Below are positions 1,571 to 21,801 of a DNA stretch of 40,408 nt, in pieces. The translations under genes and the position numbers were made by a program. The notes below the pieces were generated by a model. It was given only the letters and a program-made list of their open reading frames with translations, was not told the origin of the DNA and ran no database searches. This stretch comes from a virus (lineage: Duplodnaviria; Caudoviricetes). Every line of letters begins with the position of its first letter. The stretch's first letter is position 1. The stretch covers positions 1 through 40,408 of the IMG/VR virus record IMGVR_UViG_3300048769_000033; one strand, given 5' to 3'.

Positions 1571-1902
1571 ACAGCAAGAACCAAGCGGAAACCCTGCAGG
1601 AGAAGGTGGCAGCGATCGCCAACGAGCCGGTGGCAACAGCCATCAGCAACCTGCAAACCGAGTATCTCGCCATCGCCAAGCGGTTGCGCGGCTACTCCAT
1701 CCAGATCCACGGCAGCATTCTCAACATGCTGCAAACCGAGTTCCAACTTCGCCAAGACGAGACCAAGAACGCCATCTCCGAGTACCAGCACCAGGAGCAA
1801 TTGAAGCAGGCGGCCGCGGCGAAGGAAGCGCAGGACAAGCTTGAGGCCGAGCAGGCAGAGATTGCGAAAGCCAACGCGCCCAAGCTGGCCGTCGTCCAGT
1901 GA
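1567..1902 (+). CDS. Hypothetical coiled-coil protein
   Basis: ATG 1567 with GAGGAG RBS (1555-1560), ATGA and GTGA coupling on both sides; helical A/E/Q/K-rich sequence (start revised from 1393). Confidence 0.8.
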   Translation: MNSKNQAETLQEKVAAIANEPVATAISNLQTEYLAIAKRLRGYSIQIHGSILNMLQTEFQLRQDETKNAISEYQHQEQLKQAAAAKEAQDKLEAEQAEIAKANAPKLAVVQ

Positions 1903-3536
1903 TTGACGACGATCAGGGCGTAAATCACGGCGATCTGGCAGCGCGCATCGTTGCAATAGCCGTCACTGCCTGCTTTATGCTCGTAGCCATGGCGCATTGC
2001 CAGCCGACATGCAGCCAACTAGCTCAGGTAACGCTGTCGGGCAAGCTGGCCGGCGCCAACGGCCTGCCCGCCAAGAACTACGTGATGACCCTCAAGCCAT
2101 CGCAACAGGGCTACATCGCAGGTTGCAATGTAAATCTGGCAATCAACACAACCTGCGCAACGGCGACGGATGGCTCTGTTGTGGGCATTCAGAACCCACT
2201 GACAGCCACGGTCAACACGACCAGCGGGTCGGGATCGCTCGGCGCCGGCACCTACTACACCGTTTATGCGTGGTACGACGCTGCCGGCAACGTGACTCTG
2301 GCCAGTCCTGAGACGATCAAGATCCTCAGTGCGACTGGTTCTCTGGTTGTGAACCCTCCGTCGAGCGGCATACCAGCTCTCGCAGTCGGGATGGACGTAT
2401 TCATCGGCACAACTTCCGGTGGAGAGACGCTTCAGGGCCAAACAACCGGATCAGCGTCATTCGTCCAATCCGCGGCCCTGACTTCTGGCGCATCGCCGGC
2501 ATCGAGCAACACCACGCTCTGCCAGGTGACAGCAAACGACACGATATGGCCGACCGGCACAGGATACAACGTGTCGCTGGTCGATTCGGTTGGCAATCCC
2601 ATCCCACAATACCCCATGATGTGGCAGTTGCTTGGACCGAGCACGACGATCAACCTATCAAACGGCCTGCCCTACTACCATGGCACTGTATTCTATCCAG
2701 TTCCTATCCTCACCAATCCTGCCAACCATGGAACTCAGTCGATCAGCGGAAGCCTCGACCTCGGCGGCTACTTCCTGCGCAATGTTGGGCGCTTTGGGAT
2801 TGGAACATCGACGCCGGCATGGGGGCTGGACGTCGAAGGAAGCGGAGTAAATGGAGCGGTCAACTCTGCAAGCGGCTATCTTTTTGATGGAGCAGCTCCA
2901 ACGAATCATGTGCTGCTGGGCAATGGGAGCTATTATGTCGACTCGGCAACCATTCCGTATTCGATTCTCGACGGCGCTCCGCAGATTTTCTACCAGACGC
3001 TGCTGAACGGCTCTCATTTGAGCGATGCGGTCACACAGCGGACATACCTTGCATTGGGCTCTGGCACTGGACTGGTGGCTGCTGATGTTATTGGATCTGG
3101 GACACAAGTCACGCGCACGGTCCTTTCGGTCAATGCGACTGGATCATTAAGCAGTGACACCGAAGTGGTTAATGCCGCAGCCGCCGGGGTATCGGGGAAT
3201 TGCGCTCAGTGGGATGGAGTTGGCGGCATGGGCGATGCTGGCCGGCCGTGTGGATCTGCCGGATTCTCGTCAGGATCGACCGCCGCCGGGTATTACGTGA
3301 AAGATCCGATCGGACATATCCACGAGTGGGGATCAGCTGCTAGCACTAGCGTATCTGTGAGCATCACATACCCTCTAATGTGCTCGACAAGCGTGGTCCC
3401 TGTCTGGTCATCGGTAGACATAGGGCCAGGCGCCACTCGCAACGTCGCGTATCTGACAGCGTCTGGCACTTCCGGATTTACTGTACAAACCGACGCTTCA
3501 AGCGTGTCAGTCAACTGGAATGTGGACTGTTACTAA
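1899..3536 (+). CDS. Tail fibre-like protein with N-terminal signal-like hydrophobic segment and gp53/gpH-like C-terminal domain
   Basis: RIVAIAVTACFMLVAMAHC-Q segment; FGIGTSTPAWGLDV fibre motif; C-terminal GYYVKDPIGHIHEWG...ITYP resembles the G(Y/W)xKLPxGxIxQWG fibre-tip module. Confidence 0.75.
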   Translation: MIDDDQGVNHGDLAARIVAIAVTACFMLVAMAHCQPTCSQLAQVTLSGKLAGANGLPAKNYVMTLKPSQQGYIAGCNVNLAINTTCATATDGSVVGIQNPLTATVNTTSGSGSLGAGTYYTVYAWYDAAGNVTLASPETIKILSATGSLVVNPPSSGIPALAVGMDVFIGTTSGGETLQGQTTGSASFVQSAALTSGASPASSNTTLCQVTANDTIWPTGTGYNVSLVDSVGNPIPQYPMMWQLLGPSTTINLSNGLPYYHGTVFYPVPILTNPANHGTQSISGSLDLGGYFLRNVGRFGIGTSTPAWGLDVEGSGVNGAVNSASGYLFDGAAPTNHVLLGNGSYYVDSATIPYSILDGAPQIFYQTLLNGSHLSDAVTQRTYLALGSGTGLVAADVIGSGTQVTRTVLSVNATGSLSSDTEVVNAAAAGVSGNCAQWDGVGGMGDAGRPCGSAGFSSGSTAAGYYVKDPIGHIHEWGSAASTSVSVSITYPLMCSTSVVPVWSSVDIGPGATRNVAYLTASGTSGFTVQTDASSVSVNWNVDCY

Positions 3537-3571
3537 CTTCAACTATCAACCCAACAAGGAGCACCATAGCC

Positions 3572-4522
3572 ATGCGCAACCTCGTTCTTCGTAGCACCTT
3601 AGTCGCGCTCATCCTCACCGCCGTGTGCGCGGTACTGGGGTTTGCGCAAGTCGCCAATCAGCCGTTCACCGCTCCTGAGTACTACGCAACCAGCTTCCAA
3701 CTCTGGTCTATCAACGCCCAGAGCCCGAACACCTACATCTTCCAGGGTCGCAGCCTTTGCAGCTCAAACGGTCAGAATGTGGCCTTTTTCGACTTTGCAA
3801 CCAACGCTCCTGTCTGGATCGCGGACGCCAACACCGCGCAGTCTGAGGTCAAGACACCCTCGGCGATCATCCTCACTGCCGGCTCGTGCGGCGTTACCAT
3901 CGCGCCGAGTAATAACCACTACAACTACCAGTTGAGGTCGGGAACTGCCGGCTTGCAAGAGACGATCAACGCTGTCAAGGCGAGCGGCGGGATTCCGGCA
4001 ACCATCATCATCGATCGTAACTGGTGGTCGCTTGCCAACAACACGCCGGGAACTAGCGGCGCGGCTATCCTTGCGGCAGCCGTGGGCGGGCCTGGCGCGG
4101 CCATCGAGGACATCACGACCATTCCAGCCACCTACTATGTGTGGACCGGGACTGCCTATTCATCCAGCGCCGCATATTGGCAAAACACAGCACCTACCAT
4201 CACGGCGGGAGCGGCAGCAGGGTCTAGCCCGACAGTATCGAACGCGGCGAGTTCCACCGCACTAAGCGGTATTGCCAACGTAACAACTGGCACGGCAACA
4301 ACGACCGGCTCTTTGTTCGTCGAGACGTGGCCAACAAATGCTGGAACGGTTGGGAGCTTCCAAAATGCTGGAACATGCACAGTCGCATCGACTGGTGCCA
4401 ACTCGTTCACCACATTCACGTCGGCTACTAGCTTTACGGGAAGTCATCGAGTGCTAACGATAACAGTGACGGCCACTCCGGCAGTATCGACGGCTTACCA
4501 ATTCAGTTACAACTGCCAGTAG
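3572..4522 (+). CDS. Secreted appendage-like protein, paralogue 1 of the SGTxGLQ family
   Basis: AAGGAG RBS 3556-3561, ATG 3572; signal MRNLVLRSTLVALILTAVCAVLGFA-Q; SGTAGLQE at 3938-3961; T/S/A-rich beta C-terminus. Confidence 0.85.
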   Translation: MRNLVLRSTLVALILTAVCAVLGFAQVANQPFTAPEYYATSFQLWSINAQSPNTYIFQGRSLCSSNGQNVAFFDFATNAPVWIADANTAQSEVKTPSAIILTAGSCGVTIAPSNNHYNYQLRSGTAGLQETINAVKASGGIPATIIIDRNWWSLANNTPGTSGAAILAAAVGGPGAAIEDITTIPATYYVWTGTAYSSSAAYWQNTAPTITAGAAAGSSPTVSNAASSTALSGIANVTTGTATTTGSLFVETWPTNAGTVGSFQNAGTCTVASTGANSFTTFTSATSFTGSHRVLTITVTATPAVSTAYQFSYNCQ

Positions 4523-4539
4523 ACCATCAAGATTCAACC

Positions 4540-4574
4540 AGGGCGGCCGGCTTATGCGTCGGTCGCCCTCTTTT
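4540..4574 (+). terminator. Putative intrinsic terminator
   Basis: 12-bp stem AGGGCGGCCGGC/GTCGGTCGCCCT (two G-U pairs), 6-nt loop, then CTTTT. Confidence 0.6.
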
Positions 4575-4595
4575 ATGCAAAGGAGCATCGTCGCC

Positions 4596-6026
4596 ATGAA
4601 ATCGAGAATCATTCCCATCCTCGCCATTGCGTTTCTGATGTCCGTGGCGCTCGGAGCTCAGACTACCAGCTCCACTGCGAGCGTTACAAACCAAGCGAAC
4701 GGCCCGGCCGATGTAGCAGGGTTTCTCTATGCTGCCAACTTCGCGCACTGGACCGCATCTCCGACTGACATGGGTACACGGTGGACAAGCCCCGGCCAGT
4801 GCTATGGGACATCTGGCGGGCTAGTTTTCCCTCTGTTCTCGACCACAGCGCCAATCACGATCGTAGATGTTGGGGTTCCTGCGAACACAGAGACGGTTAC
4901 GCCGACCAATGCACTCTACACTAGCTCTGGATGCTCCGTTGCTCTCCCCGCGACCCATCCGCACAGCAACTACTATTTGAAAAGTGGTACAGTGGGGCTG
5001 CAAGAGGCCTTGAATTGGATTGGATCGGGATATGCGGTTGTGGAACTCACTGCCGATTGGACCGCTATGGGCGGAACTACCTCCATGCTCACGTCCTCCA
5101 GGGCTGGAGCGAATACGACCATCCTTGATTCGCGTACATCGAACGAGATTGCCTATTATGGAACTACCCCAACTCCCGCCCCGGTCATTGTTCCCTCATC
5201 GCTTCAGGTTGGATCAGGTACCCCTTTGCCTGGTGCGATTATCAACGCTACGCAATCAAACGTAGGAACCAGCACCCAGATCAACGTGCAGAATACATCG
5301 GTTGACAACGCGGCAAGTTCTGATTTAGTGGCAACCGCGGACAATGGCACAAATACAACTTTCTTCCTCGATTGTGGAATCAACAGCTCAACATACAATC
5401 AGGCCGCATACAATTCAGGCGGTGCCGACGACGGCTATTGCTACGCTACAAACAACTTCTTTCTTGGCGCGGCCGGATCAGGCAAGAGCGTTACAATCGG
5501 CGCTGGAGGAACGACTTCGGCGAACGTGGTAGCGACATTCGCATCCGCACTAATCACGTTTGCTCAACCGCTCACCCCATCCTTGGGAATCAATGGATTG
5601 ACAGCGGGCGTTGCCGCTGGCGCCGGCATTGATGGGCAGGTCATCTCCTCGCTAGTGCCTACTGGATCTGGAGTATCCATCGCCACATCAGGCACCACCG
5701 TCAATATGTCCAGCATCTCGCTAACCGCGGGAGACTGGGACGTAGAGGGTTCCGTAAACTTCGTGGCGGGCTCAACGACCATTGTCGGCGGCGCATTGCA
5801 TGAGGTTGGATTCAATACAACCTCTGCTACTCTGCCGGTGGACGGCTCCGAAGTTTATCTCAGTGCGCCAACACTGACCACGACAAGTGCAAACTTTGGA
5901 ACGGCTGTACCGCGCAAGGTTTACAACGTGTCCAGCACGACTGTCATTTACCTTGTGGCCAGCGGAACATTTACCGCTGGCACCGAGAAAGTTTACGGAA
6001 CCATCACAGCACGGCGCATTCGATAA
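4596..6026 (+). CDS. Secreted tail fibre-like protein, paralogue 2
   Basis: AAGGAG RBS, ATG 4596; signal MKSRIIPILAIAFLMSVALGA-Q; SGTVGLQE at 4983-5006; C-terminal SISLTAGDWDV...TITARRIR module of the kind seen in phage fibres. Confidence 0.85.
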   Translation: MKSRIIPILAIAFLMSVALGAQTTSSTASVTNQANGPADVAGFLYAANFAHWTASPTDMGTRWTSPGQCYGTSGGLVFPLFSTTAPITIVDVGVPANTETVTPTNALYTSSGCSVALPATHPHSNYYLKSGTVGLQEALNWIGSGYAVVELTADWTAMGGTTSMLTSSRAGANTTILDSRTSNEIAYYGTTPTPAPVIVPSSLQVGSGTPLPGAIINATQSNVGTSTQINVQNTSVDNAASSDLVATADNGTNTTFFLDCGINSSTYNQAAYNSGGADDGYCYATNNFFLGAAGSGKSVTIGAGGTTSANVVATFASALITFAQPLTPSLGINGLTAGVAAGAGIDGQVISSLVPTGSGVSIATSGTTVNMSSISLTAGDWDVEGSVNFVAGSTTIVGGALHEVGFNTTSATLPVDGSEVYLSAPTLTTTSANFGTAVPRKVYNVSSTTVIYLVASGTFTAGTEKVYGTITARRIR

Positions 6027-6046
6027 CTCTGGCGGGAAAAGATCAC

Positions 6047-8746
6047 ATGAAAAAACTTATCATCCTGATCTCGATCTTAGGCGCAGTCTCCTTGTGCTGC
6101 GCCCAAACTCCCGGAACTGTGACCACTGGGCCCGGCAATACCGCCGGCATCCTCTACGCATCCAGCTTCGGACAGTGGTCAGTCACCGCGGGTAATCAAG
6201 GACAGTTCTCCTGGTCGAGCCCATCATTCTGCACCGTGACCGCCGCCGGAATCCCGCTCTCTCCAGTCTTCGCTGTCGGTACTCCAGTTCTCATCAAAGA
6301 CCAGGTGACAGCCAACAGCGAGACTGTGACGCCAAGCGCGGTCAACGTTGGCGGAGCTGGTTGCTCGATCACTGTCAGCCCAGCTAATCATCACAACACA
6401 TTCGTGCTGTTATCTGGCACGGCAGGGCTTCAGGATGCCATCAATTACGCGCATGACCTTCCTTATGAAGTGATCTTGACGCCAGATTGGTCTCGGCTTG
6501 GCGGGATTACTAGCATGATCGCAACGGCTCGCGGCAACAGCAATGTGCAGATTTCCGACCAGCGGAGTGCCTGCATCATCGCTTACATTTGGTCTGGAAG
6601 CTCCTATGTTTCTCAGCCATCGTCATGTAGTGGCGGCGGCGGGGGTGTTGGTCCCGGCACGGCTGGGTACGTGCCTGTATTCACCGGAACAACCGCACTG
6701 GGAGACTCATTGGCAGACTATGGCGTGACAACGTCAGGATCGTTCACTTTTCCTGCCAACACAAACACGCCAAGCGTAAATCTGTTGCCTTTAGAACAAC
6801 TGCCAAACGGTATCGTTTCGCTAGGAATACCTCTGACATCGGTCAACCTGAGCGGGAGCGATGTGATCGCAATAGGAACAAGTGCAGAAAGTGGAGAACA
6901 GCCCGCTGCTGGCAATACTGGACAACGTGTCATCGCGTTAGGCATCGGATCAGCAACAAACAATCAAGGTAATGACGTTATTGCGCTTGGAAACGAAGCC
7001 GATTACCAGACCCCTGGTGGTCCTGCGACAGGTGAGATTGTTGCGTTAGGCATGTCCGCTTGCCATCTTGATACGGGTTCGAACGTTGTATGTATCGGAA
7101 ATCAAACCGGATTCCAGAATTCTGGCAGTTTGGTGGCAGCTATCGGCACTAATGCGGCTGAAAGAAATAGTGGAAATGTCGTCGCTGCGCTGGGAGAAAA
7201 TACGGCCCTCGTAAATTCAGGCAACATGGTGGTTGCTGTTGGAGACAACGCATCTGAATTTAACAGTGGAGATGCAGTAATCGCCATAGGCGACGGAATC
7301 CTAAATGATAACGCAGCGAGTCAGGTCATTGGAATAGGACAGAACGTTACGGGTGGAAATTCGGGAGACTCTCTTCAGCTTGGTATTGGCTGGAATATCG
7401 AAATGGCTCATGGGGGTAGCAACAATATAGCTATCGGTAACAATGCTGGGCCTGCTGGTGCTCCATATTCAGGCTCTATTGCTATCGGAGACACGGCGCG
7501 AAACACGGCGACTGGGCAAACGGTTATTGGAAACAGCAGAGCAACCGAGTTTCCAACCACTAATTTAATAATGTATGGACCTCAGCCTTCTAGCGGAGGC
7601 CCATACTGCTTGCAGATCGACAGCACTGGCAGCGTGACCTCAACAGGCGCGGCTTGCGGGTCGGGGGGCGGGGTTTCACAGATCATCGCTGGTACGAATG
7701 TGTCGATCTCTCCAGCAGGGGGGACAGGCGTTGTCACGGTGAATGCTTCGGGGGGAGGGGGTGGGTATCCCGGCTGTACCGCAGATGGATCAAACGGGAT
7801 CGTATGCACGGGACAGGTTCAAGGGAACCCCGTCAAATCGACCGCGAACAGCGTCGGCGTGAGCATCGAGAATATGTCGATTGGAACGGTATCGCAGCTT
7901 TCTTCCTTGACAACTTCCAATTCGATTTTGGCCGTTGGGTCAACAGTTTGGGTGTCGGATGGAGCGTATTGCGGAGACTTTACTGCGGGAAGTGGGAGCT
8001 ATGTCGAGAAGCTGAAATGTAACACCTTGACCAGTGGAAGCTGTTCGGCATGGTCTGTACTGTCGTGCTATCCGCCAAATACCGCGTCCTCTTCGATTCC
8101 GCAAAGCGTTTCCAATCTTGTCCTTTGGTATGCAGCCGATCACATGACTTTACTGAATGGGTCGAACGCGGTCCGCTGGATTGACAACGTTCTTGGAGAT
8201 ACCGCTTACGCTATAAACGCTGGCGCAATCTATCAAACAAGCCAAATCAACGGTCTTCCTGCTATACAGTTCTCTGGAACGACCGCTGGAAGATACACGA
8301 TCCCTTATCCAGTGATGCTAGCAAACTCGACAGTTTTTGTGGTTTTCAACCCATCCTCGTTTGGAAGACAGGATTTTATATCAGGCGGAAGCGGTGCTTA
8401 CGGATTATTTGTCAACACCAGCGGACAACTAAACCTTTTAAAATGCTACACCGCAGACCTTCCTGCTTCAACGACCACGTTAACAACAGGCACTTGGTAT
8501 CAGGCTAACGTAACCTACAACTCCAGCACATTTGCTTATTCCTATCGAGTAGCAAGAGCGGCGGCGGGAAGCGGAACAAGCAGTTATGCGATGACGTCAA
8601 ACACCAGTGGTTTGGGGTATGACGTGGCCGAATCAAACGCAGATTTTAACTCAAATCTAGCTGAGATTATCGTCTACAACCGAGTGCTGACTGGACCGGA
8701 AATCACCACGATTGAAAACTACTTGCTCGCCAAGTATGGGATTTAG
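6047..8746 (+). CDS. Secreted adhesin/fibre, paralogue 3, with YadA-head-like repeats and a C-terminal LamG/ConA-like domain
   Basis: Signal MKKLIILISILGAVSLCCA-Q; SGTAGLQD at 6413-6436; tandem NSGxxVxAxG repeats (~6850-7530); C-terminal LVLWYAAD...INGLPAIQF...AEIIVYNRVL...IENYLLAKYGI. Confidence 0.85.
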   Translation: MKKLIILISILGAVSLCCAQTPGTVTTGPGNTAGILYASSFGQWSVTAGNQGQFSWSSPSFCTVTAAGIPLSPVFAVGTPVLIKDQVTANSETVTPSAVNVGGAGCSITVSPANHHNTFVLLSGTAGLQDAINYAHDLPYEVILTPDWSRLGGITSMIATARGNSNVQISDQRSACIIAYIWSGSSYVSQPSSCSGGGGGVGPGTAGYVPVFTGTTALGDSLADYGVTTSGSFTFPANTNTPSVNLLPLEQLPNGIVSLGIPLTSVNLSGSDVIAIGTSAESGEQPAAGNTGQRVIALGIGSATNNQGNDVIALGNEADYQTPGGPATGEIVALGMSACHLDTGSNVVCIGNQTGFQNSGSLVAAIGTNAAERNSGNVVAALGENTALVNSGNMVVAVGDNASEFNSGDAVIAIGDGILNDNAASQVIGIGQNVTGGNSGDSLQLGIGWNIEMAHGGSNNIAIGNNAGPAGAPYSGSIAIGDTARNTATGQTVIGNSRATEFPTTNLIMYGPQPSSGGPYCLQIDSTGSVTSTGAACGSGGGVSQIIAGTNVSISPAGGTGVVTVNASGGGGGYPGCTADGSNGIVCTGQVQGNPVKSTANSVGVSIENMSIGTVSQLSSLTTSNSILAVGSTVWVSDGAYCGDFTAGSGSYVEKLKCNTLTSGSCSAWSVLSCYPPNTASSSIPQSVSNLVLWYAADHMTLLNGSNAVRWIDNVLGDTAYAINAGAIYQTSQINGLPAIQFSGTTAGRYTIPYPVMLANSTVFVVFNPSSFGRQDFISGGSGAYGLFVNTSGQLNLLKCYTADLPASTTTLTTGTWYQANVTYNSSTFAYSYRVARAAAGSGTSSYAMTSNTSGLGYDVAESNADFNSNLAEIIVYNRVLTGPEITTIENYLLAKYGI

Positions 8747-8755
8747 GTGAGAGAT

Positions 8756-9618
8756 ATGAAGAAAATTTCGATCATCTTTTTGCTGTCTCTTGCCGCTCCA
8801 CTGTTTGCTCAGTTGGACGCGACAAAGTGGTACGCCACTGACAATGTAATCACAGGGGCTGCGCCATCCTGCGAGTTTGCTTCAAATGTCACGGTGAACG
8901 GTGGTGACTTGAATATCGCTTTCACTGACGGCACTTACACGTGTGCGGGAGGTTCTTCGAGCTACGGCACAGGACTGATTGTTAGTGCTCCGTTTTCATT
9001 TCAATATGGAAAGGCGGTGGCACGCATCCAGTTTGGGGCCAACAATCATTGGCTATATTCCGCATTCTGGCTCGAGGGTGGTCTGGCAGGGTCGAGTGGC
9101 TATCCTCCAACATGCATTGCGCACTGCGAGCCGGAGGATACCCAGTGATGGATGCTTGTACTGGGTCCGCACAGACCACCACAGAGATTGACATTGCGGA
9201 ATGCGTGGGGACGAGTTCTTTAAAAAACAATTTGATTCTATGGCAGAACGGGAGTGTTATCAATGCATGGGTTATGTACACATCTCTTAACGGCAACGCT
9301 TCCGACAGTTTTCATATCTATGAATTGGATTGGTACCCAACTCTCCTGGTATTCAAAATGGATGGACAAATAACGAATACCATCGCGCAGTCTGTACAGG
9401 TTCCCATGTTTCTCCTATTTGATGATGAGGCTAGAACTCTTCCCACGGGACTCCCTACGGCTCTTACCGTGGACTGGGTGCGGGTGTGCAGCGATCCGAA
9501 TGCAGCCTGCAACCCCGGCGATTCAACGATGATTTTTGATGATGAGTTCAATGTTGGCGTTGTGCCTATTTCAACCAGCAATCAGGGCGAGAAAAAGCAA
9601 GGGCAAAAAGCGCAGTAG
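8756..9618 (+). pseudogene. Secreted GH16 glycoside hydrolase split by a frameshift near 9120 (pseudogene or sequencing error)
   Basis: First frame: signal MKKISIIFLLSLAAPLFA-Q, LDATKW, FQYGKAVARIQ, SAFWL; second frame: catalytic EIDIAE (9184-9201), FHIYELDW, VDWVRV. Confidence 0.8.
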
Positions 9619-9686: not shown

Positions 9687-10229
9687 ATGACTGAACGGCG
9701 GGCGGATCAGAGAGCGACTTATGATGCCATGCTTGAATTAGCCAGGGAAAGCCAAGAACTCGCCAAAAAAACACACGATGAAATCGTGGAACTGAAAGGA
9801 GACTTGGTCACAAAAGTGGAGACTCTTTGGTCTGACATGTACAACGGCGGAAAAGAGGGTGTCAAGACGCAATTGACGCAACTAGTGACCAAATTGGATC
9901 AGCGTGATCTAAATCAGGAAAAGAATGACAAAGAGCGCGAAAAGAGACAGGCCCGCCGCGACACGCGCACAAACTTCATTCTTGTGATTATCGGCCTGAT
10001 TATTGCGCTGATTGGAGCGCTTCATGAGCTGCCTCCAGCGGTCGATTCGCTAAAAAAGTTTTTGAACGGAGGAATCCATTACCCACACTTATTTCACGGA
10101 AATAACGATGGTTCAAGGTATACTGGTCGCATGAACAGACAGCCCGAATCTTCTGTTCTACCTGACAGTGAAGTTCGCAACGCCTTAACAGTCAACTCCC
10201 AGGGGGAGCAAACTCAAGACATTTTCTAA
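9687..10229 (+). CDS. Coiled-coil plus single-TM membrane protein (possible holin/XhlA-like)
   Basis: AGGAG RBS; TM FILVIIGLIIALIGAL preceded by basic residues; lies in the lysis region. Confidence 0.7.
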   Translation: MTERRADQRATYDAMLELARESQELAKKTHDEIVELKGDLVTKVETLWSDMYNGGKEGVKTQLTQLVTKLDQRDLNQEKNDKEREKRQARRDTRTNFILVIIGLIIALIGALHELPPAVDSLKKFLNGGIHYPHLFHGNNDGSRYTGRMNRQPESSVLPDSEVRNALTVNSQGEQTQDIF

Positions 10230-10437: not shown

Positions 10438-10569
10438 ATGAAAATCATTCACTGGCTCCGCAAATTGTTTGTGTGCCGGGAATGCGGCGGTAGCCGGGGA
10501 TTTAACACAAGCGCTGGATGGGTGCCATGTTGGCGATGTATCCGGAGCGGAAAGGCGAAAGCGCGATGA
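10438..10569 (+). CDS. 43-aa Zn-finger-like peptide (MKIIHWLRKLFVCRECGGSRGFNTSAGWVPCWRCIRSGKAKAR)
   Basis: Not in the ORF track (under 60 aa); GGAGG RBS at 10425-10429, two CxxC pairs, ATGA overlap with the next gene. Confidence 0.6.
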   Translation: MKIIHWLRKLFVCRECGGSRGFNTSAGWVPCWRCIRSGKAKAR

Positions 10570-11396
10570 ATGTTTTCAAAGTCTTCACCATAATTGGCGA
10601 CTATAACAAACTGACCTCAATCAACAAGGAGAAGGGAAGCATCATGAACAAACTACCACAGTATCTTACACTCGTAGTCAGTCTGACCGGAACGCTCGGC
10701 GTTCCAGCCCTGGCACAAAACTGGCTGGCGCAACCTGCTCATCAAGTGATTTATACCGGTCTTGTGGCAGCCGCGCTGATTCTCCACGCCATTTTCCCGT
10801 CGATCTTTGGCGCGTCCAGTGATGCGGCCAAGACGTCGGCTGGACTGAATAAAGCAGGAATGATCCTGCTGATTCTCGGTACAGGATTGTTCCTGATGCC
10901 TATGAATGTCTACGCGCAGACGACTACCACAACGACCAGCGCGAGCAATGGTTTCGTGGCAGACTCATCGGTTGTCGCATTGCATTACGATGGGGTTTGG
11001 AGTGCGGGAACTCATGTGACTGAATCATACGACTTCTACGATTTTGGGACGAAGAAAGCGAATCACGTCTATATTGTCGGCCATGAGCTTCTAGCTCCTA
11101 CACCTGGCTTCAGCGTCTACGCCGGAGGTGTGGCTATCGAACCAAACTTGGCTACGCTTTTCAAAAAGTTCAACGTTCCAGCGGATACCTTCTCTGCGCA
11201 GTTTGATGCAGCTTTAGGGAACGGGGTGCCGTCATCTGGCGGTTCGCATATTTCTGCGCTGGCCGGTGGACTGATCAAATACAGAGCAACCAGTCAGCTA
11301 TCGTGGAACGCATTGGAAGTCCAGTGGGTACGGTACGGATCGAACAACGGCGCTGCAATCTCAACTGGGTTGAGCTTCATCTTTGGCGGTAAGTAA
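10566..11396 (+). CDS. Holin-like two-TM domain fused through an internal signal peptide to a putative outer-membrane beta-barrel
   Basis: TMs YLTLVVSLTGTLGVPAL and VIYTGLVAAALILHAIF; internal KAGMILLILGTGLFLMPMNVYA-Q; amphipathic strands ending AISTGLSFIF-GGK; second possible start at ATG 10644. Confidence 0.7.
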   Translation: MNVFKVFTIIGDYNKLTSINKEKGSIMNKLPQYLTLVVSLTGTLGVPALAQNWLAQPAHQVIYTGLVAAALILHAIFPSIFGASSDAAKTSAGLNKAGMILLILGTGLFLMPMNVYAQTTTTTTSASNGFVADSSVVALHYDGVWSAGTHVTESYDFYDFGTKKANHVYIVGHELLAPTPGFSVYAGGVAIEPNLATLFKKFNVPADTFSAQFDAALGNGVPSSGGSHISALAGGLIKYRATSQLSWNALEVQWVRYGSNNGAAISTGLSFIFGGK

Positions 11397-11557: not shown

Positions 11558-11923
11558 ATGTGGACATATTCGCAATCGACGGGAAAACTGCTCCACGATG
11601 GCGCACTAGTCGGAATCGGCTACAGCGGACACGACAGCAGCCTTAATTGCCCCGACGCCGAAGCACTGTACGGCCTGGGGCCGATTCCGAGGGGTGAGTG
11701 GACCATTGGGTCCTTCTTTGACGATCCGGGCGGCAAGGGTCCGATCGTGGCTCATCTAACACCGGTCGCTGGTACAGAGACGTTTGGACGCTCTGGATTC
11801 ATGATCCATGGCGACAACGGATCCGCAAACCATTCAGCATCTCACGGTTGCATCATCCTCTCTCGCCCTTACCGCATCGCCATTAGAGACAGCGGAGACA
11901 AGTCGATCATCGTCACAGAGTAG
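11558..11923 (+). CDS. Tlde1/DUF2778-family L,D-transpeptidase-fold peptidoglycan enzyme (putative endolysin)
   Basis: MWTYSQSTG start, GYSG, GPIPRGEW, GRSGFMIHGD...ASHGCI (catalytic His...SxGC); GAGG RBS. Confidence 0.88.
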   Translation: MWTYSQSTGKLLHDGALVGIGYSGHDSSLNCPDAEALYGLGPIPRGEWTIGSFFDDPGGKGPIVAHLTPVAGTETFGRSGFMIHGDNGSANHSASHGCIILSRPYRIAIRDSGDKSIIVTE

Positions 11924-13129: not shown

Positions 13130-13452
13130 ATTTCCCTTTTGTTTCCCGCGAACGCTTCGACGAAGAACGAGCCAGAGCGCAGAAGGCGGAAGATGCGCTC
13201 GAAGCGTTGCGGGTCAAGTTCCTCGACTATCTGGAGCGTCACCCGGCGGCATTGCCGGTCATCGGCGAGGATACGGACCTTGGGAAGATCCAACCGATTG
13301 CGGGACGACCGACAATCGCCAACGTGATCAGTTTTGCAAACCAGAGCGCCTTTGCCGCCGCGCAAGTTCCTGGCGCCAAGGGAGCAGCGGCACAACTTGA
13401 TGAGGCGCGTCTAAAGCTCATGCGCGTAAAGAGGGAAGCGAATGGCGGCTAG
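13126..13452 (+). CDS. Hypothetical protein
   Basis: 108 aa, overlaps the KTSC stop and the portal start. Confidence 0.7.
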   Translation: MNFPFVSRERFDEERARAQKAEDALEALRVKFLDYLERHPAALPVIGEDTDLGKIQPIAGRPTIANVISFANQSAFAAAQVPGAKGAAAQLDEARLKLMRVKREANGG

Positions 13453-16033
13453 TCCTCCAGTTCTGACGATGCAATCCGGCGCAATGCCACCAGATCAAGG
13501 GCAGCAAGGTCAAGTACCCTCAACCAATGTCGAGTATGGCCCTCAGAATCCTATGCACGGAGATCAGGAGCAACTGGAACGTATGTGTGGACTGACCAGA
13601 GAAGAGGGTCAGCGCATCGTTGCTGAGATCGTCCAGCCATTCCGGACCCAGTGGGCCACCGACCGCATCATGAAGATGCCGAACTGGCTCAAGAACACTG
13701 AGTACGATAAGGGCAAGCAGATTCTAGGCTGGGACCCAATCAGTCGAACCTACTTCGATGCCGTCGCTTGGTATCGCCAGAACAACCAAGAGTCTGATTA
13801 CAGCTATCTTGAGAAGTACGTCAACAACATCACCCAGACTTGCCGACGCAACTTCGCCGCGGCCGTAGCGCGCGCCGTTCCGCCCGTCGTCGTCCGCCCT
13901 GAGAACGCCGAGAACCTCTCAGATATGGCCACGGCTAAGGCTGCCCAGGAAGCCATCTCGATCATTGAGGAGGCCAATGCGGTCAAGGGACTGCTCGGGC
14001 TGGAGTCGCAATATCTCTTCCTCTATGGCGTCTACTTCAAGTGGACCCGATTCGTCATCGATGGGACGTGGGTCGGCTACAAGGACGTTCCGCAATATGG
14101 CGAGGTCAATGCTCAGCTCTCCAAAGATCATTTTCATTGCACGAGTTGTGGGCAAGACTCTTCTGAAACGGAAATGGCGCAATCTGGCGGGATGAACTGT
14201 GTGCACTGCGGCGCGCAGCTCAGCCCCCAAGACTTCCAGCCGGGCGAGACAACCTCAGTCATAGGCCAGACTGGAACGAAGAAGAAGCCGAACGGACTGC
14301 CAAAATGGTCTATCTATTCTCCGCTCCAGGTCGATACCGACCCCACCAAAGAGTTTCTTGCCGATGTTCCTCTCTTGGCGCTTGAGTGGGAATGTGATGC
14401 CTCGGACATTCGCGCGACATTCCACGACATGGCCGATGAGATCACCGAGGGTGTCGAGAGCGCGACAAACGACAACGCAAGTTATGAGCGGCTGGTCCGC
14501 ACGATGGTTTTCTCGTCGTCGTTCTCAGTCACGGCCGATATCTTCGCGGCGCGCGGAACATACTCTCTTGTCTGGGTCCAGCCAAATTCCTACTACCGCA
14601 TCGCCGCGGACAAGCCTTTCGTCCAGAAGTTGCAGCAGTTGTTTCCCTATGGTCTGAAGTTGAGCATGTGGGGACCGGTGATCCTCAACATCGAGCCGGC
14701 AGTCCTCATCAAAGAGTGGTCGGCCTGCAAACTGCACCATGGCTATGGCCTGTATCCGCCGAGCGTGGCCGATAACGTCGTTCCGTTCAATGAGCGGTTC
14801 AACGCTATCAACAATATCCTCGACGACTACATGGAGCGTTGCTCGACCGGAATCACGCTGGTTGACCCGCGACGCATTGATATTCGAGAGATGAGCGGGA
14901 AGCCGCTGACCGGAGGGGTACTGAACCCCACACCGTCAGTCGGTGAGGGAGTCACCCAGCCGCTGTCGAATTCCATCTACCACTTCCAATTCCAGATGGA
15001 CCCAGGCCTATTCAATTACCTCGATCGCCTCTGGAACTATTGCCAGATCATCTCCGGCATTCCGCCCCAGGTATCCGGCACCGGAACAACGCCGGGCGTT
15101 GAGACGGGCACGGGTCAAAAGCAGATGCTCGATCAGGCAATGGGACCGCTGGGCGACATCTACGACTCAATCAAGGACGAGCACGCCGCCGCCGGTCAAA
15201 ATGCTATCGAGTGCCTCCAGGTCAACATGAAGTACACCGGATCTCTCTGGCAGGTGATCGAGGAGAACGGAAGCGAGTTCCGCAACAACTACGTCCACCT
15301 TGACGAGATGCAGGGCAGGGTGAGGGTCAAGTCCAACACAGATGAAGGCCTACCGAGGAGTCCCGAGCAGAAACGCCAGTGGTGCGAAACGATCATGGAG
15401 ATGGCCGAGAAGCAGAATCCGGCCGCTCTGGCATGGCTCGACGAGACCGCCAACCAGCAACTTCTCAACGACTACTGGGGCCTGCCGGGCTCGGTCGCTC
15501 CTGGCGCGGCGCAGCGGTCCAAGACGCTTCAGGACATTCGCAGGCTGCTCCAGACGCCGCCCACGCCAAAGATTGGCCCGAACGGGATGCAGATGACCGA
15601 TCCCGACGACGGTACTCCGATGTTCTCGCCGTCGATCGCGCCGAACAAATGGGTCGAGGATTACACCATCCTGTTGCCGACCATCGACCAGTTCTGCGCT
15701 GAGAATTGCGATGTGAAGCAGCAAAATCCGCTCGGATGGCAGAACGTGATTGCGTTCAAGCGACTGGCTCTGGATTATCAATCGCAGGTTCAGGGCTATA
15801 TGGCTAAGCTCAAGATGCAGGCCCAGAAGGAAGGACAGCCTCCACCGCCGACGCCGAACCCAACCGTTCAGCAGATGGAGGCCGCCGCTTTTCAGGATGC
15901 CATGACAGGACTCAGCAACCTCACGCGGCAGAGTTCCATGCCGCCCCTCGGTCCAAGTGGATCGATCGCCGGACAGGTCAGCGCGGGAAAAGAGTTGGTT
16001 GACAAAGTTGCGAAGTTTCTAGCACCGCAATAA
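13442..16033 (+). CDS. Portal protein (P22-like, with Zn-ribbon insertion)
   Basis: 863 aa upstream of scaffold/MCP; NNI...PPVVVRP...D..TAKAA, ISGI....SG......TG, C-terminal Q/P-rich helical barrel; CTSC...CVHC insert. Confidence 0.8.
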   Translation: MAASPPVLTMQSGAMPPDQGQQGQVPSTNVEYGPQNPMHGDQEQLERMCGLTREEGQRIVAEIVQPFRTQWATDRIMKMPNWLKNTEYDKGKQILGWDPISRTYFDAVAWYRQNNQESDYSYLEKYVNNITQTCRRNFAAAVARAVPPVVVRPENAENLSDMATAKAAQEAISIIEEANAVKGLLGLESQYLFLYGVYFKWTRFVIDGTWVGYKDVPQYGEVNAQLSKDHFHCTSCGQDSSETEMAQSGGMNCVHCGAQLSPQDFQPGETTSVIGQTGTKKKPNGLPKWSIYSPLQVDTDPTKEFLADVPLLALEWECDASDIRATFHDMADEITEGVESATNDNASYERLVRTMVFSSSFSVTADIFAARGTYSLVWVQPNSYYRIAADKPFVQKLQQLFPYGLKLSMWGPVILNIEPAVLIKEWSACKLHHGYGLYPPSVADNVVPFNERFNAINNILDDYMERCSTGITLVDPRRIDIREMSGKPLTGGVLNPTPSVGEGVTQPLSNSIYHFQFQMDPGLFNYLDRLWNYCQIISGIPPQVSGTGTTPGVETGTGQKQMLDQAMGPLGDIYDSIKDEHAAAGQNAIECLQVNMKYTGSLWQVIEENGSEFRNNYVHLDEMQGRVRVKSNTDEGLPRSPEQKRQWCETIMEMAEKQNPAALAWLDETANQQLLNDYWGLPGSVAPGAAQRSKTLQDIRRLLQTPPTPKIGPNGMQMTDPDDGTPMFSPSIAPNKWVEDYTILLPTIDQFCAENCDVKQQNPLGWQNVIAFKRLALDYQSQVQGYMAKLKMQAQKEGQPPPPTPNPTVQQMEAAAFQDAMTGLSNLTRQSSMPPLGPSGSIAGQVSAGKELVDKVAKFLAPQ

Positions 16034-16044
16034 GGAGAATCACC

Positions 16045-16536
16045 ATGTCTCATGTCTACAATGACAGCGTCGTCTACATCCGGAACGGCAAGCCCATTCC
16101 GGCAATCGTGCTCTCGTCGCTCCAGTCCGAGCGCGGCGAGCTGCTCACCGTCCTCTACGCGCAGCCCGACATTGGCCCCACGCTGCTCGCCCAGGGCACC
16201 ACGCGCGGCATTGCGCAGGTCCAGCAGGCGGTTGCGCCATTCAAAGAGGGCAACACATTCGGGTGGTATGACGAAGTAGTTGCAGTTCCGCAGAAAACGA
16301 TCTCCGCCCCCGAGCAGCTCGACGAGGCCCAAGGCCCGGTCACACCCGGCGATCCTGAGTCGCCGCACGCGATTCCCGGCGGAGTCGAGTCCGACGCTCC
16401 CGCGCACGAGATCAAAACATACTCGGACGGCACTGTGGTCAGCGGCCCCGGCCCGATGCCGGAACTTTCCCCCGCGCAGCAAGACGCCGCAGAATTGGTC
16501 CAGATCAAAGCAGAGCAGAATCAACCGGATGCGTAG
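16045..16536 (+). CDS. Hypothetical protein
   Basis: AAGGAG RBS; 163 aa with acidic, Pro-rich C-terminus. Confidence 0.75.
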   Translation: MSHVYNDSVVYIRNGKPIPAIVLSSLQSERGELLTVLYAQPDIGPTLLAQGTTRGIAQVQQAVAPFKEGNTFGWYDEVVAVPQKTISAPEQLDEAQGPVTPGDPESPHAIPGGVESDAPAHEIKTYSDGTVVSGPGPMPELSPAQQDAAELVQIKAEQNQPDA

Positions 16537-16607
16537 AAAGTGGACCAGACTATCGAGAACGATCAGAAATAGTCCACTCTCTGATTGCATCTGAAAGTGA
16601 ACAGTGC

Positions 16608-16638
16608 AGGGTCGCCCTTACCGGCGGCCCTTTCTATT
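16608..16638 (+). terminator. Putative terminator hairpin
   Basis: AGGGTCGCC-CTTACC-GGCGGCCCT followed by TTCTATT. Confidence 0.5.
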
Positions 16639-16691
16639 GGCCCACAATCTGACGGTCCAAGTGATCGCAGTCTTTTGAAGGAGCAGCACCC

Positions 16692-18431
16692 ATGGCAACG
16701 ACCCCAGTAGTACCGATTTCCGCCCCGGCCGCCCCGGCTCCGGCACCAGCGCCCTCCGCGGCTCCTCCAGCCGCATCACCCGCACCGCCAACTCCCGCCT
16801 CTCCAGCGCCTGCTGCGCCGTCGCCAACGGCACAACCCACAGCAGGCGCCCCACCGGCAGCCGACGCCGCGCCCAGCGGACCACAGCCGCCCGCAAAGCT
16901 GAATCCCGGCGAGTATGGCAACGCAACTGACTCCTACATGGCCGAGGTCCAGTGGAAGCAGGATCTAGCCGCATTCAAGGAAGCGAACCCCGGCGTAGCC
17001 ATCGAGGATGAATCACCGTGGACCGGGACGGAAGCGCTGCCGGCCGAGACGCCAGCCGCCGAACCCGGCACCGAAACCAAGACAGATGAGACGAAACCGG
17101 CTGACGCCGAGACGCCAAAGCCACCCGAGCCCGGCGCAGATGACGAGCCGTTTGGACTGGATGATGCTCCCGCCGCTCTCACTCCCCAGGCCTTGAACGA
17201 TCTTTTCAAGGGCGACGAGGCGCTCAAGGCAGCGGTTGAGGCCAACCCGGCCGCCAAAGGTGCGCTGTTCAAGATGGCTCGCGAGAACGCCGAACTGTCG
17301 CAATTTAAGGGCATTTTCCCGAACAAGGATGCTGCCACCTTTGCCCGCGACACCGCTAACCGCACGGTGGGCCTGCGCAGTCAGTTCCAGATGGCCGAGA
17401 CTCCCGAGGCGATGGCCGGAGCATTTGACTCCTTCATGCAGGAGTTCGCGGTCGTTGGAGCAGATGGCAAGCAAGTCATGGACGAGACAGGAAATCCGGT
17501 CTATGGCGATGATCTGTATATGTTTGGAGAGCACGTAGTCAATCGCTACGCGGACAGCACGTTGGCAGAGGTCGAGGAGAGGCTTGCCGCCAACCAATAC
17601 ACCGACGAGGCCCAGCGCGAGCGGGACAACGACCTCAAACTGGCGCTCTCAATCATCAAGGACGACCTTCACCCGGCCGAGCCTGGCGCGAAGGCTGACC
17701 CGGATCTTTCCCACTTGCCTGACGATGTGCGTAAGGAAGTTCAAGGCCGTTTGGACGAGGCCAAGCGCATAGAGAGCGAGAACGCGGCTGCCAAGGCTGG
17801 CGCTAAGAAGCAGAGCCGTGAGCAGGTCCGCACCGAGGGAAACAACAAGTTCTTTGCCGACGCAGGAAAACGAACCTTCGAACAGGCCCGCAGCATGGTC
17901 GAGAAGCTGCGCGCCGCCGGAGCCGTCATTCCGCAGTGGCAACTTGACGCCAAAGTCCCCGGCCAGAACTATACCGCATTCGACAACGAAGTCGGCAAGG
18001 CTATCGAAGCTCATCTCAAGTCCGACCCCTACGAGTACAACAAGCAATTTCAGCTTGAGTTGCAGTACATCGCCAACCCAACCCCAGAAAACCTCCAGGC
18101 CCGCCTGTCCGCATTCGACGCCGTGTTGCAGTCGAGAGATGATAGCGGCAAGAGCCTGCTCAACCGTGTTGTCACCAAATTGGTCCGCCAGTACGGTTCA
18201 CAGGCCTCTACGGCAACTACCGCGGCGGCTGGGACCGACAAGGCACCCGCAGCCAGCGTCGAGCCAAAAGCAGGCCCGGGTGCTCAACCTCATCAAATGA
18301 ATCCTGATGAGGCATACAGAGAGGCAACAAAACAGCTTGCCAGCGAGGTCAAAGACTGGCATTCTTTAAGTGCAAGCGAGCAGATGAGTCAATCGCTCGC
18401 ACGCCAGCGGAGAATTCTGACTGGCAGGTAA
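16692..18431 (+). CDS. Capsid scaffolding protein (putative)
   Basis: AAGGAG RBS; Pro/Ala-rich N-terminus, acidic helical body, basic C-terminal RQRR; lies directly upstream of MCP. Confidence 0.7.
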   Translation: MATTPVVPISAPAAPAPAPAPSAAPPAASPAPPTPASPAPAAPSPTAQPTAGAPPAADAAPSGPQPPAKLNPGEYGNATDSYMAEVQWKQDLAAFKEANPGVAIEDESPWTGTEALPAETPAAEPGTETKTDETKPADAETPKPPEPGADDEPFGLDDAPAALTPQALNDLFKGDEALKAAVEANPAAKGALFKMARENAELSQFKGIFPNKDAATFARDTANRTVGLRSQFQMAETPEAMAGAFDSFMQEFAVVGADGKQVMDETGNPVYGDDLYMFGEHVVNRYADSTLAEVEERLAANQYTDEAQRERDNDLKLALSIIKDDLHPAEPGAKADPDLSHLPDDVRKEVQGRLDEAKRIESENAAAKAGAKKQSREQVRTEGNNKFFADAGKRTFEQARSMVEKLRAAGAVIPQWQLDAKVPGQNYTAFDNEVGKAIEAHLKSDPYEYNKQFQLELQYIANPTPENLQARLSAFDAVLQSRDDSGKSLLNRVVTKLVRQYGSQASTATTAAAGTDKAPAASVEPKAGPGAQPHQMNPDEAYREATKQLASEVKDWHSLSASEQMSQSLARQRRILTGR

Positions 18432-18736
18432 CAAGTTCGTCACCCTCGTTTCTATCGCTTCCAAGGGTTTAGGGCGGCCGAAGGAGAGCGAATCGGCAGG
18501 CCGCCCGCGATTTTAGAACGACCCGAGAGCACGGCTAGAGTACCGGCGAGCAATCTACCATCGGCGTTACCCGCTGCCGCCGACAGCGCAGGATAGAGAG
18601 CCAACCAGGGAAAGGCTAGAAGCCCTCACAGCCAAGAATCCGCCCCGGCAATCGGCCGGCGCGCACCGCCCACTCCTAACCGAGCAACGCCGCGACACGC
18701 TCTCCATGCGAAGCGTGAGCGAAGGAGTGTAACACC
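18432..18736 (+). other. 305-nt non-coding, hairpin-rich leader of the capsid gene
   Basis: No credible ORF; GGGCGGCC 18472-18479 pairs with GGCCGCCC 18499-18506; CACGC/GCGTG hairpin just before the GAAGGAG RBS. Confidence 0.5.
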
Positions 18737-20041
18737 ATGCCAACACCCAATTTCACCACTGCATCCGCTGATTCCGTCATCATGCTCCAGACCTACACGC
18801 CGCCCAAGGAAGTCATTGAGAACATGGAATCCGAGCTTGACCGCCGGTTCTCGACCATGGGCCCGCAGACCATCACCAGTCTCCAGGAATTCCGCGTCAT
18901 GCTGCAGTACGAGTACGGTGGCAGCTTCGGAGCTGGTTCGACTGATGGCGGCAACTACCCGACCGGCACCGGTGGGGCATACAACGAGGGCATTATGACC
19001 CCCGTCGAGATCCTCCTGGCCATCACCTGCACCGACCTCCAGAAGCGCATCGGCAACTCCGGAAAGACCGTTATCGCGGTCAACCCCGTCGATAAGTTGG
19101 TCGCCGACGCGCACACGAAGATGCCCAAGAAGCGCAACCAGTCGCTCCAGGGATTCAACACCGGCCAGATCGCTACCGTCTCGGCCACCTATGCCGGCGG
19201 CGGGGCCAACCCGATCGCTCTGGCTACCGCTCCGTTCGGTTCCCGTCTGATCGACATTCAGGACACCGTGCAGTTCATGTCGGGTGACGGCAACTACACC
19301 CTGCGCGGCTCGGCCGTCGTGGTCGACGCTCCCAAGAACGGCATTGGCACCGGCAACCAGATCACTGTTGATAACGTGCCCGCCGGCGTCGTGGCTGGCG
19401 ATTACGTGATGGTCAACAACGTTGCCTCCGGCTCTCCGCTGTTCTTCAACGGAATCCAGTACATTGTCAGCCCCAACACGACTGGCGAGTATCTGGGCAT
19501 GGACCGCAGCCTGTCTTACGTGCAGAGCCCGGCCTACAATGCCAACTCCCTGCTCACCCTGGGCATCGTCGAGACGTTCCTGACCCGCATGCAGCAGGCC
19601 CTCGGTAACACAACCTACAACCGCGACCGCCCCAAGAACTTCTGGTACGGCCACAACGCGCAGCGCGCATCGTGGAACCAGCTCGGCTTTGCCATCCAGC
19701 AGATCACCATGCCCACTGGAAAGGCGCCGAAGTTCGACGGTGTTCCCGACACGTTCTCCATGGAGATGATTGCCGGCGTCGAGTGGCTTCTGGACACCGT
19801 GGCGGCCATCGACAAGCTGTATTTCATGGACCGCAGCAGCATGATTCGCTGCCGCTTCAACGACGCTCCCCAGTTTGTTCCCGGTCAGATCGAGGGCATC
19901 TGGTTCCAGCGCCCCAGCGGCAACAACACCAGCTCGTTTAAGGACGCCTGGCTGTATGACGCGGTGAACTATGCTTCGAGGAATAACTGGACCTCGGGCG
20001 TGATTTACGGACTTTCGATACAAACGTCGTTCAGTAATTGA
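18737..20041 (+). CDS. Major capsid protein (putative HK97 fold)
   Basis: 434 aa, strong RBS, strongly C-ending codon usage, follows portal and scaffold. Confidence 0.82.
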   Translation: MPTPNFTTASADSVIMLQTYTPPKEVIENMESELDRRFSTMGPQTITSLQEFRVMLQYEYGGSFGAGSTDGGNYPTGTGGAYNEGIMTPVEILLAITCTDLQKRIGNSGKTVIAVNPVDKLVADAHTKMPKKRNQSLQGFNTGQIATVSATYAGGGANPIALATAPFGSRLIDIQDTVQFMSGDGNYTLRGSAVVVDAPKNGIGTGNQITVDNVPAGVVAGDYVMVNNVASGSPLFFNGIQYIVSPNTTGEYLGMDRSLSYVQSPAYNANSLLTLGIVETFLTRMQQALGNTTYNRDRPKNFWYGHNAQRASWNQLGFAIQQITMPTGKAPKFDGVPDTFSMEMIAGVEWLLDTVAAIDKLYFMDRSSMIRCRFNDAPQFVPGQIEGIWFQRPSGNNTSSFKDAWLYDAVNYASRNNWTSGVIYGLSIQTSFSN

Positions 20042-20057
20042 AACTAAAGGGGTTAGA

Positions 20058-20837: not shown

Positions 20838-20880
20838 GAATTTACCCTCTCAGAATCAGTTCTACTCTAACACATAACCG

Positions 20881-20910
20881 GCGGGCTGCTTCGGTGGCCC
20901 GCTTTAGTTT
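20881..20910 (+). terminator. Intrinsic terminator, probably the capsid-gene terminator displaced by the HNH insertion
   Basis: GCGGGCTGC-TTCG-GTGGCCCGC, C(UUCG)G loop, then TTTAGTTT. Confidence 0.7.
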
Positions 20911-20919
20911 GGAGAAAGC

Positions 20920-21755: not shown

Positions 21756-21801
21756 CCTCGCGGGACAGGTTCTCGGAGCGTAGCAGAAGGAGCGTATTAC
21801 C

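Follow-up and report, generated by a model that had tools for sequence, protein, structure and literature searches.

How could a tailed phage equip its particles with fibres whose genes encode signal peptides? The question is raised by the virus record IMGVR_UViG_3300048769_000033, which we analysed over its entire length of 40,408 nucleotides (the window). Five consecutive plus-strand late genes, starting at positions 1899, 3572, 4596, 6047 and 8756 (their products are called here SP1 to SP5), had been described in the original prediction as fibre, adhesin or glycanase genes with a signal-like N-terminus ending just before a glutamine. These N-termini are present at all five positions, but only four of the genes (1899-8746), whose signals are conserved, are intact, since the fifth (8756-9618) is not one open reading frame (ORF): a shift of one base near 9120 divides it. 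The assembly of tailed-phage particles is taken to be completed in the cytoplasm, and fibre parts folded elsewhere would have to be added to the particle at lysis. Our analysis argues that these late tail-fibre-like and spike-like proteins are probably exported by the host Sec machinery and are cleaved and disulfide-bonded in the periplasm, and that the exported fibres would dock on finished, fibre-less particles once lysis mixes the compartments. Because export is highly probable, while docking is likely for SP1 and less so for SP2 to SP4, we consider the route as a whole to be fairly probable.

Signal peptides, cysteines and the glutamine at position +1

The predicted cleavage sites are AHC-Q in SP1 (residues 34/35), GFA-Q in SP2 (25/26), LGA-Q in SP3 (21/22), CCA-Q in SP4 (19/20) and LFA-Q in SP5 (18/19). 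Signals were called with our own heuristic script for n-, h- and c-region properties and hydrophobic core, together with conservation. The hydrophobic-core score was 2.7-3.0 in the five proteins, compared with less than 2.0 in all 27 other called genes of the window, none of which combined a hydrophobic core with a small-x-small site before glutamine. The signal-bearing genes are co-oriented in one run with lysis and virion genes, and only their products bear signals.

The original prediction would have failed had the signals not been conserved in homologues, and by our heuristic they are. All 106 full-length SP2 homologues have A, G, S or C followed by Q at the cleavage site; their signal residues diverge, yet the n/h/c properties stay, and Q26, C63, C106 and C269 were invariant in 103 aligned sequences. 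A cleavage-like site was found in 104 of 120 SP1 homologues, with Q after it in 77 of those. The N-terminal domain that SP2, SP3 and SP4 have in common (see below) gave 187 unique hits across the loci, of which 148 had a signal followed by Q, one had a signal followed by another residue and 38 did not pass; among the matches listed, those that did not pass were mostly frameshifted or truncated frames of metagenome-assembled genomes (MAGs) or proteins with long n-regions. When the 146 distant representatives (50% identity) of this domain were scored, 131 passed, 6 were N-truncated and 9, which look signal-like by eye, fell under the thresholds. In none of the five window genes does an in-frame ATG separate the signal from the domain (there is one GTG in SP4 and one TTG in SP5), and a methionine occurs there in just 8 of 148 relatives. 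With an n/h/c signal, small residues at -3 and -1 and conserved properties, SP1 to SP5 have the make-up of Sec/signal peptidase I (SPase I) substrates. A lipobox with an invariant +1 cysteine, as in lipoproteins cut by SPase II, was not found in them: the cysteines near the site are unconserved, while Gln is invariant.

An even number of cysteines was counted in the mature form of 106/106 SP2 homologues, of 65/65 complete shared-domain proteins on viral contigs, of 96/104 SP1 homologues and of 120/131 distant shared-domain representatives, compared with 28/42 and 13/25 for two cytoplasmic controls, the portal protein and g20979, respectively. The capsid protein (29/35 even) was a poor control, its sequences being nearly identical. 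C86 and C208 of SP1 (C86-C208) are invariant, while C38 and C76 co-vary, with both present in 58 sequences, neither in 17 and a single one in 1.

Among 60 genome loci with relatives, 57 belong to Acidobacteriota and 3 to Verrucomicrobiota bins, so the host is likely a member of the Acidobacteriaceae. Glutaminyl cyclase (PF05096) was found in four of five likely-host Acidobacteriaceae genomes and VKOR in two of the five. All 13 listed signal-bearing genes in the host flanks (L176-L183; about six families) also have Gln at +1. Since host exported proteins share this residue and likely-host genomes encode the cyclase, the +1 Gln is not a phage speciality but a general habit of the host for its exported proteins, which the phage follows. 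The available text of PMC10653852 describes this Q rule as exclusive to Bacteroidetes; it may extend beyond Bacteroidota. The signals of the window fit the rule, and pyroglutamate is predicted at their mature N-termini. Conserved signals, even and co-varying cysteines and the cyclase in 4/5 genomes thus make a strong case for the proposed export and periplasmic oxidative folding, and we hold Sec export, cleavage, pyroglutamate and disulfides of the signal-bearing proteins to be very probable.

Architecture of SP1 and of the shared-domain proteins

SP1 (545 aa; 1899..3536, plus strand), which has 211 homologues and the same position in related phages, consists of a predicted Sec/SPase I signal (residues 1-34; 1899..2000), a predicted StfN-like virion anchor (42-263; 2022..2687), a shaft and an H-lectin-like receptor-binding tip (452-545; 3252..3533). 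Its model has a predicted local distance difference test (pLDDT) score of 79.5. In VIA structure comparison the N-terminal domain best matched the neck fibre of A-1(L) (8keg_a, Z 9.4), then a tail-tip chain of Ur-lambda (9e7m_Ta, Z 8.5, 94/94 residues aligned, root-mean-square deviation 2.9), the Bxb1 tail tip (9d93_La, Z 8.0), the XM1 neck (Z 7.6) and the DEV collar (Z 7.0). All five best phage matches are to fibre structures of the neck, the collar or the tail tip; the highest score of a cellular transthyretin-like domain was Z 7.0. The fibres of lambda (Stf), A-1(L), XM1 and DEV are cytoplasmic and are not known to have signals. SP1 shares their N-domain fold (Z 7.0-9.4) and the anchor-shaft-tip layout of lambda Stf-type fibres, to which it adds the signal, disulfide-type Cys pairs and a 100-residue insertion. 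According to the available text of PMC12617516 (PDB 9E7M), residues 1-94 of StfN form the collar that anchors the lambda side fibres, and we equated the 94-residue Ur-lambda chain with StfN by its matching length.

The inserted beta-sandwich of SP1 (residues 95-198) matches domains of the SPO1 capsid (Z 8.8) and the crAss001 muzzle (Z 8.6). The tip has the fold of R2 pyocin and AP22 gp53 (VIA Z 10.1 and 9.9; Foldseek E 3.9e-4), with a PF21882 match below the cut-off. C-termini vary among relatives, while the anchor region keeps many invariant residues. With an N-terminal anchor fold and a variable C-terminal receptor-binding tip of known type, SP1 is, as modelled, a tail fibre. A likeness of its N-domain to Tunturi 3 gp14/gp15, seen by eye, was dropped (E 0.09-0.4, hhalign probability 0.4), and PDB sequence searches with the SP1 profile, SP4, Tunturi 2 gp12 and Tunturi 3 gp14 gave nothing useful.

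The products of the genes at 3572, 4596 and 6047 begin, after the signal, with an unnamed domain of about 175 aa that the original prediction had not mentioned. In SP2 (316 aa; 3572..4522, plus strand; model pLDDT 92.8) the signal (residues 1-25) is followed by this domain (about 26-205; 3647..4186), made of a small beta-barrel and an alpha/beta part with an SGTxGLQE motif and one Cys pair, and by a C-terminal beta-sandwich with C269-C315. SP3 (476 aa; 4596..6026, plus strand) has a signal (1-21), the shared domain and a fibre body with a SISLTAGDWDV tip module (phrog_11393, E 2.8e-11). SP4 (899 aa; 6047..8746, plus strand) has a signal (1-19), the shared domain, Asn/Gly-rich repeats visible by eye only, a Cys-rich linker and LamG (760-886, E 2.8e-7). 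The gp53-like tip, the SISLTAGDWDV module, LamG and the GH16 of SP5 were correctly read from the start, while the YadA-head label of SP4 found no YadA Pfam match and no PDB sequence match, and its C-terminus is LamG and not a membrane anchor barrel. Another 39 phage proteins contain the SP3 tip module; 26 of them lack a signal, 8 have signal and Q, 2 are doubtful and 3 are cut by contig ends. The same fibre parts are thus used in cytoplasmic and exported forms, which makes the signal an added, selected feature.

The shared domain was found in 408 representatives at E<=1e-10, always directly behind the signal, and the bodies that follow it vary from 100 to 1,900 residues and include beta-helix/pectate-lyase-like, LamG, GDSL, F5/8, ice-binding and CBM4_9 modules. 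Among the matches listed, a tailspike-neck motif follows it immediately in the MAG copies L057, L077 and L092, so that these members, like P22-type tailspikes, have an N-terminal module, then the neck motif and a beta-helix. The native P22 tailspike is without disulfides and folds in the cytosol, according to the available part of PMC3357383. No Pfam, PHROG or NCBIfam family matched the domain, Foldseek with the SP2 model gave no PDB match at E<=0.001 and four hits in BFVD (uncharacterised or unnamed, three of them labelled phage proteins), and leads from the ESM Atlas were all below 0.9.

The modelling of trimers proposed in the original prediction gave a partial answer. Three copies of SP2 were predicted to associate with a score of 0.88, compared with 0.00 for the best control, with a contact agreement between runs of 91% and a pLDDT of at least 92; 20 of 30 true dimers attain the mark for self-association, as does 1 of 23 monomers. 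The predicted interface covers residues 27-44 and 139-205, with most of the small barrel outside it. SP2 is thus predicted to form a homo-oligomer through the shared domain, and the output is compatible with a closed trimer and a larger ring alike.

Attachment to the particle and alternative readings

In the route that we propose, SPase I would cut before Gln, host glutaminyl cyclase would likely form pyroglutamate and the Cys pairs would be oxidised, steps for which the case is strong. SP2, and probably SP3 and SP4, would oligomerise through the shared domain, whose predicted interface starts right after the cleavage site, and SP1 N-domains are predicted to form a collar like that of lambda StfN. 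After holin and endolysin action SP1 may bind the neck or tail, and the shared-domain proteins may bind a second particle site; for these later steps the case is weaker. P22 tailspikes and T4 fibres attach spontaneously and late in vitro, the former to heads.

Attachment of SP1 is suggested by its anchor fold and by analogy with the cultured Cellulophaga phage phi18:3 (Pachyviridae; KC821620), while for SP2 to SP4 architecture and gene position point to it; the addition to virions originally proposed for all five proteins is unsupported for the anchorless GH16 protein. In phi18:3, gp085-gp087 are consecutive late genes upstream of the lysis genes, encode a signal followed by Gln and are recorded in the GenBank annotation as structural by tandem mass spectrometry (MS/MS) proteomics, the only experimental hint of such proteins on particles. 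This phage differs from that of the window in its Bacteroidota host and in the Cys numbers of the three proteins (0, 1 and 3), none of which has homology to SP1 or to the shared domain. The available literature listings on phi18:3 contain no paper remarking on these signals. Tunturi 2 (PP885685), a phage of Tunturiibacter, is closer in host, being an imaged podovirus of Acidobacteriaceae according to the available text of PMC11924767. Its gp12, gp13, gp16 and gp17 have signal and Q, the signal of its gp14 ends at ANA-T, and the proteins have many Cys. The only annotated long tail fibre, gp13, is among the signal-bearing ones, and gp14 is pectin-lyase-like; the N-terminal domains are not homologous to the shared domain. 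The fibres of Tunturi 3, which infects the same host, are signal-less. Signal peptides are never mentioned in the main text or text supplement of the Tunturi paper, as far as these are available, and gp14 is labelled there as an auxiliary metabolic carbohydrate-active enzyme (CAZyme; PMC11924767).

Gene context agrees with a virion function. In close relatives the late run likewise opens with SP1-SP4 in this order, while in distant relatives shared-domain genes lie before the portal gene, after the capsid gene or after the nozzle gene. In 50 of the 60 genome loci, and likewise in 55 of 61 viral loci, a virion gene or SP1 was a neighbour. Full-length shared-domain protein matches were found in 2 of 201 sampled host-family genomes, both inside a phage-derived element (see below), so this is not an ordinary secreted domain of the host.

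Several results weigh against the proposed route. The signal calls come from our heuristic and not from SignalP, and the n-region of SP1 is atypical, long and acidic, with a GTG start that overlaps the upstream stop and an unclear Shine-Dalgarno sequence. The even cysteine count found in every full-length SP2 homologue is missing from the mature SP4 of the window, which has 15, and the count is odd in 11 of 131 distant representatives. In this phage and its family attachment is deduced from genes and models, and a signal-less short-fibre candidate (26977) exists, so that the particle may not need the exported proteins. The best VIA match of the shared domain, between its small barrel and the "rider" domain of a Klebsiella K1 lyase (Z 7.3; available text of PMC8822698), is below our bar, and no head-binding domain matched above it, which makes its docking role a prediction; the tailspike-neck motif was found by regular expression in only 1 of 90 long representatives. 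Ten of the 60 genome loci have no virion neighbour within 10 kb. SP5 has no anchor domain and is broken in the window strain. The shared domain has no homologue among these proteins of phi18:3 and Tunturi 2, and the MS detection in phi18:3 could reflect co-purification.

The best-surviving alternative is that the exported proteins are released at lysis as soluble depolymerases, lectins or decoys and are never on the virion, with the signal-less 26977 as sole fibre. SP5 and several same-slot genes of relatives, which are without an anchor, agree with it and are likely to encode soluble glycanases freed at lysis; Shiga toxin reportedly follows a Sec-then-lysis route of release. Shared-domain genes that, among the loci listed, resemble stand-alone host genes (L089:9788-18057, beside a polysaccharide-biosynthesis-like cluster, L091:9692-13171 and L094:9926-15985) also speak for soluble release and against attachment, and are possibly the result of host capture. 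As SP1 retains a fibre-anchor fold with many invariant residues, a fixed N-domain on two to four paralogues in each genome would be puzzling if these were free enzymes, and the signal-bearing proteins of phi18:3 are MS-annotated as structural, we judge this alternative unlikely as an account of the whole set.

Lysogenic-conversion or superinfection-exclusion proteins on or in the host envelope are quite improbable. An outer-membrane barrel gene lies nearby (10518), and these genes are retained in an element that looks domesticated and occupies a fixed chromosomal site. In Porphyromonas gingivalis phages, five phage genes with Sec signals exposing Gln, their function unassigned, are read as host outer-membrane modifiers, which sets them apart from fibres (available text of PMC10367356, cited in PMC10653852). 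Display on the host surface, the other outcome offered in the original prediction, is nevertheless unlikely because no lipobox, C-terminal barrel, membrane or outer-membrane anchor was seen in SP1 to SP5; the genes are moreover co-oriented with lysis and head genes, and the anchor and tip folds are of virion type.

It is less probable still that the fibres are signal-anchored in the inner membrane, placed by a cytoplasmic partner and cleaved or collected during passage of the particles through the envelope. Long n-regions are common in SP1, and 4 of 146 representatives (P0318, P0338, P0359 and P0363) have a domain homologous to the window gene 16045-16536, which lies between the portal and scaffold genes, fused in front of signal helix, A-Q site and shared domain (hidden Markov model E 7e-10 to 1e-4). 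These fusions may link export to assembly, but may also be plain read-through events, and most members have short, textbook cleavable signals. The least probable alternative, that the hydrophobic N-termini are uncleaved helices or are bypassed by starts further inside the gene, with the usual cytoplasmic folding of the fibres, draws on the acidic n-region and uncertain start of SP1 and on heuristic scoring, but is at odds with N-termini that diverge freely and keep their n/h/c properties and Gln, with Cys parity and covariation, with the rarity of internal Met and with the signal-less state of the same tip module in 26 of 39 other phage fibres.

Sec export followed by docking at lysis consists of parts of known kinds, and the route itself is undescribed in the searchable literature, where no paper on virion fibres exported by Sec came up (papers behind a subscription and supplements of bioRxiv preprints lay outside the search); PMC5026251 and 10.1101/2020.10.09.334284 mention SignalP, in their available text, only in methods or legends. 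Added here are an anchor of StfN type, the shared domain with its predicted self-association, the statistics on cysteines and the contrast of Tunturi 2 with Tunturi 3. We lean slightly towards the wider view that a widespread group of tailed phages splits its assembly across the inner membrane, making heads and tails in the cytoplasm and loading periplasm-matured fibres and interchangeable spikes at lysis through one oligomeric docking domain. Infectivity would then arise only as particles leave the cell, and these could take up spikes from co-infecting or resident elements. Such an extracytoplasmic assembly step would likely benefit the phage by making host-type secreted glycan-binding or enzyme domains, which need disulfides and periplasmic folding, usable as receptor-binding tips, and it would account for the listing of such genes as "auxiliary metabolic" CAZymes. 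The shared domain is a marker of several hundred proteins from an unnamed group of Acidobacteria phages.

Neighbouring genes, the record and a related chromosomal element

SP5 (8756..9618, plus strand) has a signal (residues 1-18) and a GH16 glycanase domain (PF00722 E 1.5e-8) with the ExDxxE-type motif EIDIAE. An extra base joins its frames in two of four runs, and the other two match the window (one of them perhaps its source); as both forms are seen in separate runs, the frameshift is likely a natural polymorphism, and an assembly error is unsupported because two runs share the form of the window. No SP5 homologue was found among the ORFs of loci L001-L171. The domain opens at LDATKW and has at its C-terminus an FDDEFN motif, presumably the first strand of laminarinases, so it is possibly circularly permuted. 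Next come, on the plus strand, a gene labelled holin/chaperone-like, with one transmembrane segment and no family match (9687..10229), a gene for holin-like membrane segments, an internal signal (VYA-Q) and an outer-membrane beta-barrel (10518..11396; TM 0.77 to OMP_b-brl), and a probable endolysin gene of the Tlde1/YkuD family (11558..11923; PF10908 E 8.7e-10). The product of 10518-11396 is a sixth signal-bearing one that the original prediction had left out; its layout is common to four relatives in the loci, and the barrel may have a Lom-like role.

The record is almost wholly a plus-strand virion module, whose signal-less core (13442..40219) would encode portal, scaffold, capsid, adaptor, nozzle, the short-fibre-like 26977, ejection proteins and terminase. 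Terminases and the nozzle-like gene were identified by PHROG matches, and the portal, scaffold, capsid, adaptor, short-fibre and ejection labels were derived from gene order, size and sequence features. No tape measure or sheath gene was found in the 40.4-kb module, which indicates a podovirus. Searches with SP2 and the capsid protein (tblastn) against 50,697 cultured phages gave no match. Related phage contigs of 54-69 kb hold further genes upstream, so the genome is likely larger than 40.4 kb. Near-identical DNA occurs in peat and permafrost metagenomes, where 14 DNA runs, five being possible sources, hold at least 0.9 of its words; contigs from RNA runs cover parts of the region and cannot show transcription. 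The whole module is bounded by a 166-nt inverted repeat (99%) at 1-166 and 40220-40385, with doubled depth in one run, as fits a two-copy repeat that breaks assembly. This explanation makes terminal inverted repeats of a linear genome unnecessary, and the repeat is possibly an inversion, packaging or promoter site.

A phage-derived element of about 40 kb with the same exported fibres was found in MAG loci (L052-L109) and in four genomes (G001:C15, G002:C7, G003:C10, G004:C21; L176-L183). Among the matches listed, some 25 MAG loci of Acidobacteriaceae encode capsid proteins of this element that share 94-100% identity, and a near-identical capsid occurs in 2 of 201 sampled host-family genomes. 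It lies at the same chromosomal site in four of five genomes checked, with an extracytoplasmic function (ECF)-type sigma factor and a phage-initiator-like gene, and no integrase was seen in its flanks; it is a candidate for a gene-transfer-agent-like particle. In other phage lineages (L024, L031, L036, L039, L041 and L042), signal and Gln stand directly before an FxPGQxLTAxxLN motif, which we take to be a common fibre anchor. Among the proteins encoded in the ejection region of the window (28868-29884 and 31530-37493) there are a Hint-like domain, matched below the cut-off (PF05203, E 9e-7), and, at E 1.2e-11, an ADP-ribosyltransferase domain of the ART-PolyVal type.

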